64,000 nt of DNA from NCBI GenBank assembly GCA_021513695.1, contig CP084166.1, positions 1,888,001 to 1,952,000 on the forward strand, written 5' to 3'. Each line of letters starts with the position of its first letter. Position 1 is the first letter of the stretch. The stretch comes from Candidatus Heimdallarchaeum aukensis. GTDB lineage: Archaea > Asgardarchaeota > Heimdallarchaeia > Heimdallarchaeales > Heimdallarchaeaceae. The notes beneath the pieces are model-generated. The model saw nothing but the letters and a program-made list of their open reading frames with translations. It did not search any database and had not been told where the DNA came from. A program made the translations under genes and the position numbers. This document shows positions 42,511 to 50,117 of the stretch, piece by piece.

Positions 42511-42531
<21 letters not shown>

Positions 42532-42650
42532 AAGTTTGGGGGGCCTCAGGCCCCTCCCTATTATTCTCTTTATTTACTCTCTGTTTTTCATTGCTTGGAG
42601 TTCTTGTTATCATTGGACTTTTTTATTTGTCTCAACTTTTCTTTATCTCT
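42511..42650 (+). repeat. Direct repeat copy 1: 16S 3' terminus (last ~21 nt) plus ~115 nt of trailer
   Basis: About 95% identical to 49159-49290. Both begin cctgcggatggatcacctcctaagtttggggggcctcaggcccctccctattattct and share ...tttttcattgcttggagttcttgttatcattggacttttttatttgtctcaa. Confidence 0.85.
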
Positions 42651-42718
42651 TCTATTTTTTTCCATCTTTTTCTTTTATTACGTTTTCTCTTTTTTTCTCC
42701 TTTCTCCCTTTTTTCTCT

Positions 42719-42773
42719 AGGAGGTGATCCTACCTTCTGTTCTCCTACGGCTACTTTCTTGTTACTTTTTTTC
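42719..42773 (-). repeat. Degenerate inverted copy of the 16S 3' terminus
   Basis: aggaggtgatcc is the exact reverse complement of ggatcacctcct, exactly 200 nt downstream of the genuine 3' end. It continues taccttctgtt-ctcctacggctac-tttcttgttac, which aligns to the reverse complement of ...gtaacaaggtatccgtagggg... with many C-to-T changes. Confidence 0.6.
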
Positions 42774-43147
42774 TTTTTCCGCGCTTCTACCTTATTTTTG
42801 CAACAACGGGTGGTATGTTCTTTTTCTTTTTCCTTTTCCATTTCCTTTTTTTATCTAAGTATTAGATTTGTGATCTACGTAATTAATTGTATAGTGATTA
42901 GTTCGGTTGATAAAGCTTACAAAAATAGATTTTTCTTCGATTTTTCGATATTTTTTGTTACTTTTCTGATTTAAAGGTACTAGACTTTGTAATATAAGTC
43001 TTATAAAATCTAGCAAAATACCGAAACAGTAAGCGAGGATTTTAATTTTATTTTAGTTTCAACTACCTAATTCATGGCTCAATGAGTGGTAGGTTCTTCC
43101 TCCCTCCCGGATGGACCTTTCCCGAGAGCAAGATTACAGTACAAAAA

Positions 43148-43172
43148 TTTTGTACAAAAATCGAGTTGATGG
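43148..43172 (+). promoter_or_regulatory. Second copy of the TTTTGTACAAAA palindrome plus tcgagttgatgg motif
   Basis: Matches the element at 9093-9118. It is embedded in locally GC-richer noncoding sequence upstream of the island's gene cluster. Confidence 0.3.
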
Positions 43173-48300: not shown

Positions 48301-48861
48301 CATGGAACAAAAGTTACAGACCTTAATCCTCTTTCAAGTTGTCCGAAACTACAAGTATTAGATTTACATGGAACAGACGTTCAAGACATTAGTCCTCTTG
48401 TAAGCTTACCCCATCTACAATACTTAGTTTTACGTGGAACAGACGTTCAAGACCTTAATCCTCTTTCGCACTGTCCGAAACTACAAGTATTAGATTTACA
48501 TGGAACAGACGTTCAAGACATTAGTCCTCTTGTAAGCTTGCCCCATCTACAATACTTAGATTTAAGTGGAACAGACGTTCACGATATTAGTGCTCTTTCA
48601 AGTTGTCCAAATTTACAGAGATTACGTTTAAGTGAAACAAAAGTTACAGACATTAGTGTTCTTGAAAACTGTCCAAATCTACAAGAATTAGTTTTACGTG
48701 GAATAGAAGGTGAATTTAATATTTCTCCTATCATTCGGCATAGACAATTATTAAATCTTGATTTTGATTCTTCACTACAGTTGCTTTGTCCTCGAGACCT
48801 TCAGGATAGTATTGAAGCTCCTGCTCTTCTCAAGATAAAAGATCAAATACAATTTTTCTAA
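45346..48861 (+). CDS. Membrane-anchored STAND NTPase (NACHT-like) with C-terminal leucine-rich repeats (NLR-like protein)
   Basis: Two N-terminal TM helices. Walker A ITGIPGVGKTS. Walker B-like IFWILDGWNE (hhhhDGxDE of NACHT). A helical/winged-helix region, then ~22 internalin-like 22-residue LRRs (CPNLQxLxLxGTxVxDIxPLSS). Confidence 0.85.
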   Translation: MPNKKRIFVFFIILLVLSFLVGALPALVSEGIFHLNSTLVIILALLSPILSPFIELIYSNIANIVKKANYNRKRIVSILEENYRNFIQHLIIPSARGNTVNELLPLHSIERRIMSVEDLEKYVERGEKNVDSFPFTQIVEELKGSPPRSLSSSPLKYIITGILRKRKKIKNEGKRLLKYIITGIPGVGKTSCSFQLALKQLEAFNNKESNYLPLWFDIGERTGRKQLGNGLKSLRDILKDCSTQVSKEEQLKTYLAFLEGKSVDNVELRLSDDDFEIFWILDGWNENPINDMITWLSNRDTITIFSRMGGEPLGSSSISFDKYTLRPFTVQDSISFLTQFNHVPEKCARIIASSLDEHYGEEFLIPFFLNIIVYNLSIQGINDTVQTINYFNIEQTTKFSFLKDFFYSILERDFSSINAQRKLNDRLKRQILSWFSQILYFIVKKNSNVPSRMIFREEDLQDAIDNVRPPEIVRTDPLEVLTDLLFIEKVQDNRGERTISYSLVHELYLDFFLAYAISSFWEKKENEPKFDNDGRMYLQWMDNESFDEVWFLIADKWKDSKENNFEKFIIKCLEFRRDKKDNQDLTLQHILDYIRNRVLSYSFLHPNKRSISSHHNICLSLRLFPGGIKELDLSETKVTDISALVHCTNLRYLDLSGTKVTDISALVHCTNLQYLDLSGTDVQDISPLSHCPNLQKIYLSGTDVQDIRPLSSCPNLQVLYLLGTHVQDISPLSSCPNLQVLYLLGTHVQDIRPLSSCPNLQVLYLLGTHVQDIRPLSSCPNLQRLRLSGTKVTDISVLKNCPNLQELDLSDTDVQDISPLSSCLNLQELYLLATHVQDINPLSHCPKLQVLDLRGTHVQDINPLSHCPKLQVLDLHGTKVTDISVLKNCPNLQELDLSGTKVTDINPLSSCLNLQALYLSDTDVTDLNPLSSCLNLQALYLSDTDVTDLNPLSSCLNLQALYLSDTDVTDLNPLSHCPKLQVLDLHGTKVTDLNPLSSCPKLQVLDLHGTDVQDISPLVSLPHLQYLVLRGTDVQDLNPLSHCPKLQVLDLHGTDVQDISPLVSLPHLQYLDLSGTDVHDISALSSCPNLQRLRLSETKVTDISVLENCPNLQELVLRGIEGEFNISPIIRHRQLLNLDFDSSLQLLCPRDLQDSIEAPALLKIKDQIQFF
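47218..48706 (+). repeat. Tandem 66-bp coding repeats (LRR units), several copies identical or near-identical at DNA level
   Basis: The unit gtgctgtatttacttggaacacacgttcaagacattcgtcctctttcaagttgtccaaatctacaa occurs three times in a row at 47497-47694. The unit ...caagttgtctaaatctacaagcactgtatttaagtgatacagacgttacagaccttaatcctctttc occurs three times at ~48070-48270. Confidence 0.85.
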
Positions 48862-49158
48862 ATTGTTGTATATTAGTTTTTTCTTTTTAGAACACCTATC
48901 TTTCTGAAAAAAATCTATTGTTCAGTTATAGCCATAAATCTTTTTTTATGATTGTAAATTTGAATCTATCTTACACAAAAGATCTACCTGTTAACATCCC
49001 TTATTATTTTAGGTAAGATTCTATCCCTCTTTCATGATACAGTTCTAGATATACTGAATTATCTACAAACTGTCAAAGAGCAATACAACATAACAGTGGT
49101 TACTCTTGCTTTTTAGAAATCTCCCTTCATTAGGAGAAAGGAAAAAAACACGATATTG

Positions 49159-49290
49159 TCCTGCGGATGGATCACCTCCTAAGTTTGGGGGGCCTCAGGC
49201 CCCTCCCTATTATTCTTTTTACTCTCTGTTTTTCATTGCTTGGAGTTCTTGTTATCATTGGACTTTTTTATTTGTCTCAATTTTTCTTTC
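49159..49290 (+). repeat. Direct repeat copy 2 of the 16S 3' terminus plus trailer
   Basis: See copy 1. It is preceded by unrelated sequence (cgatattgt) and is not attached to a 16S body. Confidence 0.85.
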
Positions 49291-49496
49291 TTTCATGTTC
49301 TAACACTTTTAGTCGTGTTTCCACCAAAATCCCTTTTCAACTTTCTAAATTTTTTATTCTCGCTCCCATTCTTCTCCATTTTTCTCCATTTTTCTTTTTT
49401 TTTCTAACTAACCTTTTTCTCCCTCTTCCTTTCTTTCTCTCTCCTTCCCCTTTCTTTTTTGGATAAATTTATGTACTTTTTTTCTCTCTTTTCTGT

Positions 49497-50117
49497 ATGT
49501 TTCTTTCTCCTGACCTTTCTTACCTTGTTGGTGCCTTACGTGACGGTTCTGTTTACTATTATTCTCGGAATAGGTCTTACTATACTCTTTTTTATCAAAA
49601 GTATCGTTCTTGGCTTGTTCACTCTATTGGTAAGCGTATAACTAGATTATTTGGTTTAAACTATTCTATTGACGAATATAAGCGCGGTCATTATCGTCTT
49701 CGCATTTCAAGCAAGCGCTTGTATTCTCTCTGGATTGACCAATTTGGTTTTCCTCGTGAGGGTGAGACTCAGTTACACTGGGATGTTCCTCGTCTTATTT
49801 TAGATAGCGATCTTCTTACTCAGTCTTACTTTCTCCGAGCTTTTTTTGACACTGAGGGTGATGTTTCTCCTTCATCTAGTTCTACTTATTATCTTGGTTT
49901 AAGTCAAAAGAATACTACTGTTTTATATCAACTTAAATCTCTTCTTTCTTCTTTCGATATTAAAACTTCCTCCATTCATTTAGCTGATAAAAAGTCTAAT
50001 ACTTACAGGTTTAGTATTGTTGGCAAGGAAGAAATTTTCAAATTTAGGGACAAGATAGGTTCTGAGCACCCTGTTAAGAAAGAAAAAATTGACCAAATTC
50101 TTCTTTCCAGCGACTAA
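49497..50117 (+). CDS. LAGLIDADG homing endonuclease, double-motif, I-DmoI-like
   Basis: Motif 1 YLVGALRDGSVY near the N-terminus and motif 2 FLRAFFDTEGDV. HYRLRISSKRLY parallels I-DmoI YELRVSSKKLY, and IHLADKKSNTYRFSI parallels IHLDDHRHGVYVLNI. Its ~200-aa size is typical of rRNA-intron-encoded enzymes. Confidence 0.8.
   Translation: MFLSPDLSYLVGALRDGSVYYYSRNRSYYTLFYQKYRSWLVHSIGKRITRLFGLNYSIDEYKRGHYRLRISSKRLYSLWIDQFGFPREGETQLHWDVPRLILDSDLLTQSYFLRAFFDTEGDVSPSSSSTYYLGLSQKNTTVLYQLKSLLSSFDIKTSSIHLADKKSNTYRFSIVGKEEIFKFRDKIGSEHPVKKEKIDQILLSSD

Follow-up and report, generated by a model that had tools for sequence, protein, structure and literature searches.

A 6.5-kb island bounded by copies of the 16S rRNA 3' end and trailer is present or absent at the 16S flank of Candidatus Heimdallarchaeum aukensis

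The 16S rRNA flank and its direct repeats

We analyzed the DNA behind the 16S rRNA gene in a 64,000-nucleotide stretch of contig CP084166.1 from strain PM71 of Candidatus Heimdallarchaeum aukensis (hereafter the window, to which positions refer unless another record is named), where a 6.5-kb island of genes (42644-49159) lies between two direct repeats of about 130 bp, each of which reproduces the extreme 3' end of the 16S gene and the trailer that follows it. The 16S gene is uninterrupted (41054-42531, plus strand; Rfam RF01959, SSU_rRNA_archaea, 1336 bits, model positions 1-1478) and is the only copy in the genome of this archaeon (PMC8813620). Searches with Rfam over window positions 1-64000 recovered no 23S rRNA gene in the 41 kb upstream or the 21 kb downstream of it, and thus the 16S gene here stands outside a compact rRNA operon.

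The leader of the 16S gene contains a plus-strand segment (40878-40935) that cofolds with trailer positions 42556-42618, and we take the resulting helix of about 55 bp to be the processing helix of the 16S precursor. Within it a 25-nt arm of the leader (40879-40903) is complementary at 24 of 25 positions both to 42593-42617 and to 49238-49262; the leader strand pairs with the trailer and therefore with both copies of the repeat. Copy 1 (42511-42643, plus strand, 133 nt), which resembles a left attachment (attL) site, is contiguous with the 16S body and comprises the last 21 nt of the gene (42511-42531) and 112 nt of trailer, in which a GC hairpin (42538-42556) and the processing helix's 3' strand (42556-42618) precede a T-rich tail. 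Copy 2 (49160-49288, plus strand, 129 nt), similarly attR-like, is made up of the same parts in the repeat alignment. A single C/T substitution (42636 has C, 49281 has T) and a 4-nt indel are all that distinguish the two copies, so that an earlier note on this DNA, which had placed the repeats at 42511-42650 and 49159-49290 with about 95% identity, was essentially right. The 12-mer GGATCACCTCCT occurs three times against an expectation of 0.05, and the 25-nt stem strand likewise three times against an expectation of 0.

Each copy is followed by roughly 200 nt of T/C-rich DNA. Behind copy 1 this comprises 42644-42850 (57% T, 25% C; 82% C+T), with the plus-strand stretch 42644-42717 delineated by its composition as the opening of the island; behind copy 2 it comprises the plus-strand spacer 49289-49496 (54% T, 27% C; 81% C+T), which runs from the trailer to a downstream endonuclease gene and includes a segment (49389-49411) 87% complementary to leader positions 40789-40811. 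The pyrimidine-rich block of the earlier note hence describes these two flanks and not the island overall, whose coding part is 36% A and 33% T.

This locus has been published as the mobile element HeimM2, an 8-kbp interval between the 16S gene and tRNA-Arg(TCT) encoding an internalin-like protein with leucine-rich repeats (LRRs) and one homologous to rRNA homing endonucleases (Wu et al. 2022, Nat Microbiol 7:200; PMC8813620). Locus and genome are the same, the distance from the 16S end (42531) to the tRNA (50620) is 8.09 kb, and LRR and LAGLIDADG domains are both encoded within it; the element itself is thus already known, and the island is its LRR-bearing part. The published account differs from ours in treating HeimM2 as a single 8-kb element with a co-opted endonuclease, whereas here the unit that varies between strains is the 6.5 kb between the repeats and the endonuclease gene stays behind in a strain with an empty site. 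The main text of that paper contains none of the terms 'direct repeat', 'att site' or 'flanked', and its searchable supplements do not contain HeimM2; neither source describes the repeats, the empty site, the inverted 16S fragment or the trailer copies in the related element HeimV2 (PMC8813620). A literature search for integration sites with direct repeats at 16S flanks gave nothing. The att-like repeats, the natural empty site, the setting apart of the endonuclease from the island, and the trailer copies beside cassettes in several Heimdall lineages are therefore what is new here.

Empty and occupied sites within one species

The island is absent from an 81-kb contig of Joint Genome Institute (JGI) sample 3300033148 (L132), which we found via homologues of an 803-aa neighbor gene and the loci encoding them. 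Positions 1-5965 of L132rc match window 36644-42644 at 99.05% identity and positions 5836-8174 match 49160-51494 at 99.66%, the two alignments overlapping on one repeat copy with the whole island missing between them. The gene order of this contig is sortase, 16S, one trailer, endonuclease, tRNA-Arg and the 803-aa gene; its 16S gene is identical to that of the window, and its single trailer is contiguous with the counterpart of spacer 49289-49496, which identifies that spacer as the native continuation of the trailer. Conversely, a 7274-bp contig from JGI sample 3300033149 (L137), independent of the assembly of the window, is collinear with 42419-49696 (99.4% identity) and runs from the 16S end through copy 1, the inverted 16S fragment, the island and copy 2 into the beginning of the endonuclease gene. 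Within one species, a 6.5-kb block is thus present or absent exactly at the repeats. The proposal of the earlier note that the rRNA 3' end served as an insertion or recombination site, from which precise removal would leave a single 16S end, is borne out by this natural island-free strain.

As L137 spans both junctions, the arrangement is not an assembly artefact. Two Logan unitigs of run SRR15988954 have their first bases at 42606 and 49251, in both cases exactly 30 nt ahead of the base by which the copies are told apart; these are the points at which a de Bruijn graph of k=31, the word length we assume for Logan unitigs, would branch if both alleles are in the reads. The genome had been closed with Nanopore and Illumina reads (PMC8813620).

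The two repeat copies are distinct alleles. Copy 2, with its 4-nt deletion and T at 49281, corresponds to the empty-site allele of L132, whose trailer departs from it only in having C where both window copies have A (42533/49182); copy 1, with the undeleted CTTTA and C at 42636, differs from the empty-site allele. Judged from these sequences, the pattern is what would be expected of a crossover near the left end of the homology, because copy 1 is the non-resident allele and adjoins island DNA, and copy 2 is the resident allele and adjoins chromosomal DNA.

Trailer copies in the sister species and in other lineages

Wu et al. reported a 44-kb element, HeimV2, in the sister species H. endolithica as 'integrated at the same site' (PMC8813620). 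The 16S side of this site lies on contig L127 and its tRNA side on contig L133. On the 16S side, homology to the window stops exactly at 42643, the right end of the repeat, and is succeeded by genes for PadR-like, ParA-like and PD-(D/E)XK proteins. On the tRNA side we identified two partial trailer copies. Copy A matches window 42548-42679 and begins 8 nt past the end of a giant gene of 5326 aa; it is followed in order by a T-rich stretch homologous to that behind copy 1, a decayed 16S end in inverted orientation, a segment homologous to window 42859-43170, and the genes named IbrA and IbrB by Wu et al. (PMC8813620). Copy B matches 42556-42626 and lies behind the IbrA/IbrB-like module; next to it are another copy of the block 43085-43175, two more genes and then the tRNA. 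The functional trailer and copy A bracket 37.9 kb in record coordinates. With three trailer-core copies (functional, A and B) inside it, the published 44-kb interval is composite.

A third close relative (L126) departs from the window at 42623 into yet another sequence. The 46-nt core of the trailer (42578-42623; TCTCTGTTTTTCATTGCTTGGAGTTCTTGTTATCATTGGACTTTTT) is identical in 8 of 8 copies from PM71, L137, L132, L126 and H. endolithica. The module behind copy 1 shares 71.6% identity with that behind copy A, as against 85.5-93.7% for orthologous intergenic DNA, which suggests related elements rather than vertical descent.

The trailer core also repeats, in diverged form, in two other Heimdall lineages (L031 and L063). 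In L063 (100-2850) the order is 16S, trailer, endonuclease, a 530-aa gene and a trailer copy. In L031 (1-6000), copies of the trailer stem at 127, 2093 and 4080 between the 16S and 23S genes each head a paralogue of about 530 aa (43% amino-acid identity) or its remnant, the 28-nt stem pieces being 89-93% identical. Protein genes between 16S and 23S, on the same strand as these, were seen in the Heimdall relatives L031, L063 and L003 (1-8214).

These lineages were among the matches listed when genome contigs were scanned with the 16S-end pattern CCTGCGGATGGATCACCTCCT; those listed were mostly 16S ends of Thermoplasmata, DPANN and candidate phyla radiation (CPR) organisms and included L031, L063, L093 and a Thermoplasmata case, L027. 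Metagenome contigs scanned with an exact pattern gave no matches, and L125 and L126 were the sole matches of a gapped pattern in the scan of metagenome contigs. The Thermoplasmata case, a metagenome-assembled genome (MAG; JBGQKI010000015.1, 3300-4560), shows an analogous layout beyond the Asgard archaea: the 16S 3' end and trailer are followed by an insert of about 1.0 kb, with an antisense ORF (open reading frame) of 256 aa that has no Pfam match, after which the final ~135 nt of 16S and the trailer appear a second time in diverged form.

The inverted 16S fragment and the left-end module

Inside the island, behind its opening T/C-rich stretch, lies an inverted, decayed fragment of the 16S 3' domain (42718-42819, minus strand), recognized by alignment as comprising the flanks of helix 44, helix 45 and the anti-Shine-Dalgarno end. 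Aligned to 16S positions 42395-42532, its reverse complement shows 81 matches against 17 mismatches, with deletions that fall in the helix-44 region, and the fragment includes an exact inverted GGATCACCTCCT at 42719-42730; the inverted third copy of the earlier note is hence confirmed. Its description as decayed by C-to-T change is apt only in direction, for 11 of the 17 substitutions are toward T on the plus strand and just 4 of those 11 are C-to-T. As RNA, the fragment folds back onto the 16S 3' end in PM71 (z = -7.1), and we considered a conserved clamp on that end. We rejected it since H. endolithica has a homologous inverted fragment (TAGGAGGTAATC...) behind copy A, beside a trailer copy without a 16S end and 38 kb from its 16S gene, which makes a conserved RNA role unlikely.

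The fragment is followed by a non-coding left-end module held in common with H. endolithica (42818-43170, plus strand; 71.6% identity to L133rc 1280-1650). Inside this is a conserved block of about 90 nt (43085-43175) with the near-palindrome GTACAAAAATTTTGTAC, which occurs also behind both H. endolithica trailer copies (L133rc ~1560-1650 and 4311-4402, with 79% identity to the latter) and at window 31118-31170, upstream of the gene for ribosomal protein S7 (85% identity over 31118-31169). The block could be a promoter or operator; we rejected the idea that it is a known or structured RNA, as it has no Rfam match and a fold z of only -0.9.

A free-standing endonuclease gene and the right flank

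The right neighbor of the island is a gene for an I-DmoI-like LAGLIDADG endonuclease (49497-50117, plus strand; Pfam LAGLIDADG_3, PF14528, 48.8 bits against a cut-off of 22.5), whose ORF starts 209 nt past copy 2, in agreement with the earlier note. A single chain of about 200 aa carries two LAGLIDADG motifs (LSYLVGALRDGS and LRAFFDTEGDV), and residues D16/G17 and D118/E120/G121 are invariant in nine homologues. A profile of the family detects I-DmoI over nearly its full length (E 2e-10), while the single sequence found no significant match among solved structures. The protein resembles I-DmoI, the monomeric two-domain enzyme of the Desulfurococcus mobilis 23S rRNA intron, in length, in its two motifs, in its catalytic Asp/Glu residues and in its association with an rRNA gene; it differs in that its gene is free-standing downstream of 16S rather than within an intron or intein. 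The ORF lies outside the uninterrupted 16S gene, relatives have it in the same free-standing position, and the intron families of Rfam gave no match at the gathering threshold over the window and none at E <= 1 over 42500-43400.

Homologues with 55-64% identity are encoded 100-300 nt past the 16S trailer in L002 (a Heimdallarchaeaceae MAG), L003/L004, L005 and L063. Downstream of them the genes vary, from the PolD small-subunit region in L002 to phosphoenolpyruvate carboxykinase and then 23S in L003 and others elsewhere, and in every look-up the endonuclease gene was 160-806 bp from a contig end. The earlier note had proposed comparison with related Lokiarchaeia/Asgard genomes, although the organism belongs to Heimdallarchaeia, the endonuclease being 100% identical to a protein of Ca. 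H. aukensis; the arrangement it envisaged for relatives, with the 16S gene followed directly by the endonuclease gene, is found in these and in L132. H. endolithica is without a close endonuclease homologue, homology to the window resuming at 50197, 80 nt past the endonuclease stop codon. As the gene is kept in the empty site of L132 and after the 16S trailer in four other relatives, it is separate from the island, a conserved, free-standing gene tied to the 16S flank. The alternative offered in the earlier note, a relic of a rearranged rRNA intron and homing endonuclease, thereby falls, for the 16S gene is uninterrupted and the endonuclease is intact, conserved and independent of the island.

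The right end of the published interval is an intron-containing tRNA (50620-50715, plus strand; Rfam tRNA, 51.5 bits), assigned to Arg-TCT by Wu et al. (PMC8813620), for which ARAGORN gives the odd 4-base anticodon 'tcta'. A second apparent intron-containing tRNA of 113 nt (23036-23148, plus strand) is found by Rfam and missed by ARAGORN. Adjoining tRNA-Arg is the orphan gene of 803 aa (50716-53127, minus strand), which is intact in PM71 and is split in L132 and in H. endolithica L133 by a 483-aa TnpB (Cas12f1-like_TNB), inserted near window 51482-51494, into parts of 551 aa and about 215 aa. In a more distant Heimdallarchaeaceae genome (contigs L130 and L131; JGI 3300033141 and 3300033149) the neighbor of the sortase gene is not 16S but the gene for the PolD large subunit, which carries an intein with a LAGLIDADG_3 domain.

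Gene content of the island

The genes of the island, all on the plus strand, were screened against Pfam, NCBIfam, PADLOC and PHROGs. ORF1 (43325-44152, 275 aa) has no match in any of the four, and its AlphaFold2 model from the single sequence is poor (predicted local distance difference test, pLDDT, 40). The fold predicted for ORF2 (44163-44948, 261 aa) is PIN-like and has a helical insertion; it is not that of a recombinase. The family of ORF2 is rare, at 6 clusters in 1.84 billion representatives. Similarity of ORF1 and ORF2 to the LRR protein was not significant, and they were therefore rejected as pieces of a paralogue of it; the idea that together (536 aa) they form a split homologue of the ~530-aa proteins in L031 and L063 was likewise rejected on comparison. 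ORF3 (45026-45301) is a relic of an LRR-protein paralogue, its residues 1-48 aligning with residues 553-600 of the 1171-aa protein (42% identity, E 2e-11) and the corresponding DNA repeat, D5, showing 76% identity.

The 1171-aa LRR protein (45346-48861; Pfam LRR_4, E 1.4e-102) has a hydrophobic N-terminus, a P-loop with the Walker A motif GIPGVGKTS and a tandem series of about 22 LRRs, each of 22 residues, encoded at 47165-48842 (plus strand) by about 22 tandem 66-nt units that are 76-89% identical. The earlier note had called it a TM-NACHT-LRR protein; its LRRs are strongly matched, but the NACHT label is unsupported, as Pfam gives no NACHT match and nSTAND3 scores 17.1 bits, below its cut-off of 27.2. 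Sequence searches of PDB found no match. Differences between PM71 and L137 fall mostly in the LRR-coding repeats (47165-48842), where a 1-nt deletion at 48229 breaks the 1171-aa ORF in L137. Wu et al. reported a CRISPR spacer that targets the LRR gene (PMC8813620). Beyond it lies a 27-codon relic of a subtilisin-like S8 peptidase (49033-49113; tblastn 74% over 27 aa, E 2e-8; blastn 73.8% over 80 nt), ending 46 nt upstream of copy 2 and homologous to residues 264-290 of a peptidase in the HeimV2/aloposon element of H. endolithica. This homology suggests that an aloposon-like element was formerly present at this site. Taken as a whole, the island is a partly decayed mosaic of conflict-type genes and not a self-sufficient element.

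Proposed recombination within the trailer and its alternatives

Based on these observations we propose that the island probably enters and leaves by recombination within the trailer segment, a process that keeps the rRNA end intact. A circular intermediate with one trailer copy would recombine with the chromosomal trailer in the manner of Campbell-type integration, and the island would be lost if the reaction ran in reverse between the two repeats. The incoming element would bring a full copy of the 16S end and trailer, so that the 3' end, hairpin, processing helix and T-run are rebuilt beside the 16S body; as the incoming copy rebuilds these, insertion would cost nothing. Catalysis could come from host homologous recombination across the ~130 bp that the copies share, or from an enzyme provided in trans. 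Repeated events would stack cassettes, each headed by a trailer copy, and deletions would leave relics such as the LRR-paralogue, S8-peptidase and inverted 16S fragments. The different copy lengths (133, ~95 and 71 nt), along with the lack of an integrase, favor homologous recombination or a trans-acting factor over a dedicated att-specific integrase.

Such a locus belongs to a well-known kind, the islands at the 3' ends of stable-RNA genes. As in islands at tRNA and tmRNA genes, the direct repeats begin inside the RNA gene and extend past its 3' end, the copy beside the gene body keeps the gene intact, presence and absence are precise, and cassettes can lie in tandem at one site. It is unusual in its target, which is not a tRNA but the 3' end and a processing-helix strand at the flank of the only 16S gene; further differences are that the island encodes no recognizable integrase and that the extent of the repeat varies between cassettes. 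Of the hallmarks of this class, flanking repeats and an empty site are found here and an integrase gene is not. The locus does not match a transposon with a target-site duplication: transposons make duplications of 2-15 bp and have terminal inverted repeats and a transposase, whereas the repeats here are of 129-133 bp and neither of the other features was found. A long target duplication, suggested by the earlier note, accounts for the locus less well than att-like repeats, as a staggered cut of 133 bp is unlikely and the trailer core repeats in the sister species also and, in diverged form, in two other Heimdall lineages.

Several observations weigh against mobility through the trailer. No integrase, transposase or other recombinase was found among the island ORFs with Pfam, NCBIfam, PADLOC and PHROGs, and the repeat scan revealed no terminal inverted repeats at 42644/49159. 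The island is host-like in composition (30.7% GC against 30.4%, with a tetranucleotide distance inside the background range), and, with the gene relics it holds, it resembles a hotspot in decay more than an intact element. The partial copies have differing left ends (42511, 42548 and 42556), unlike the products of an integrase with one fixed att site. No circular or excised form was observed, unitigs of k=31 being unable to phase the 57-nt identical stretch of the repeat; and since viral contigs contained neither the trailer core nor relatives of ORF1 and ORF2, and did not match the 16S end or a degenerate core, no free element with an attP-like trailer copy was found. Gain and loss of the island require the same number of extra mutations, so that the alleles do not decide between them: an old duplication with a deletion in L132 explains the allele pattern in equally many steps, and the A at 42533 in both window copies, against C in L132, calls for a further change or gene conversion under either course.

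In a rival explanation, template switching or fold-back at the helix-45 and trailer hairpins, or tandem duplication, would have rearranged the locus in situ; the island would then never have been mobile but would be a scrapyard of resident genes, and L132 a secondary deletion by homologous recombination between the repeats. A direct duplication with an adjacent inverted partial one is a pattern known from template-switch rearrangements, and the left boundary of the repeat falls within the GGAA loop of helix 45. The LRR-paralogue and S8-peptidase relics, the host-like composition, the lack of a recombinase match and the mutation counts of the repeat alleles, which suit loss as well as gain, would all be accommodated, and L031 resembles a plain tandem duplication of a unit of trailer piece plus gene. 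We nevertheless regard this course as unlikely. It does not readily explain why the same trailer core stands between unrelated cargos in H. endolithica (an aloposon-like unit, an IbrAB-like module and genes of 281 and 315 aa), why PM71, H. endolithica and L126 each have different DNA directly past the trailer, or why the left-end module is so much more divergent than orthologous intergenic DNA (71.6% against 85.5-93.7%); and the CRISPR spacer against the LRR gene (PMC8813620) is at odds with a purely resident origin.

A second alternative, compatible with recombination in the trailer, is that the extra copies are selected RNA or DNA signals, either terminators or processing sites that insulate the cassettes or alternative partners of the 16S leader. 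It would account for a 46-nt core that is identical in 8 copies from two species and several strains while the flanking module is at ~72%, for stem pieces in L031 that are 89-93% identical beside paralogues with 43% protein identity, and for each copy ending in a T-run and sitting 5' of a cassette. Conservation is however explained equally by gene conversion against the constrained trailer or by recent acquisition, and the genes beside copies A and B of H. endolithica lie on the opposite strand; we regard selection for such signals as improbable.

Still less probable is mobility driven by the endonuclease, in which the enzyme cuts a naive 16S flank and repair copies the whole 8-kb element. Homing through a double-strand break is not known to make flanking direct repeats of 130 bp, and the repeats bound 6.5 kb that leave the endonuclease outside. 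Co-option of the enzyme for site-specific integration was proposed by Wu et al. (PMC8813620), and in its favor the gene adjoins the island, the catalytic residues are invariant across nine homologues, and the gene, where present, always lies 100-300 nt past the 16S trailer with differing genes downstream, a constancy that suggests a target in the 16S flank. Yet L132 has the endonuclease without the island, L002, L003/L004, L005 and L063 have it without an LRR island, and H. endolithica has cassettes at the site and no endonuclease.

Misassembly often arises from repeats beside rRNA genes. Misjoining or collapse of the repeat, which the earlier note had named among the outcomes that would undo its proposal, is nonetheless refuted here by copies that differ by a substitution and an indel, by the independent contig L137 across both junctions, by paths of allele-specific k-mers for both copies in raw-read unitigs, and by closure of the source genome with Nanopore plus Illumina reads (PMC8813620).

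A broader and more tentative possibility is that the 16S trailer of Heimdallarchaeia is a portable recombination site for an integron-like array behind the rRNA gene, from which cassettes, each with a trailer copy at its head, would leave as circles, pass between strains and species, and insert again. The key part may be the 3' strand of the processing helix, kept nearly invariant by rRNA maturation; re-insertion would proceed by homologous recombination or by a recombinase not yet recognized, and the break that initiates it could come from the resident I-DmoI-like endonuclease. So far, the cassettes encountered are the LRR/PIN genes, the aloposon giant genes, IbrAB, the ~530-aa paralogues and the endonuclease itself. 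Integron arrays, with their attI and attC sites, are reminiscent of this in that a fixed platform gathers unrelated cassettes bounded by a recombination sequence; but there is here no IntI-type integrase and no attC hairpin, and the repeat is a host rRNA flank, so that the comparison would be one of analogy only.

Conclusions

For one of the few described mobile elements of Asgard archaea, the exact boundaries and an empty site can now be given and the endonuclease separated from the island, which points to recombination within a copied rRNA flank rather than the endonuclease-driven integration published for it. In practical terms, the trailer repeats are a warning, for they break assemblies at the 16S end. 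The cell's only 16S gene would tolerate repeated insertion, because each incoming element rebuilds its 3' end and processing helix. Trailer copies lie behind 16S in four Heimdall genomes, and if the pattern is wider, accessory and defence-type genes would routinely enter by way of the rRNA flank in the group of archaea that stands closest to eukaryotes.

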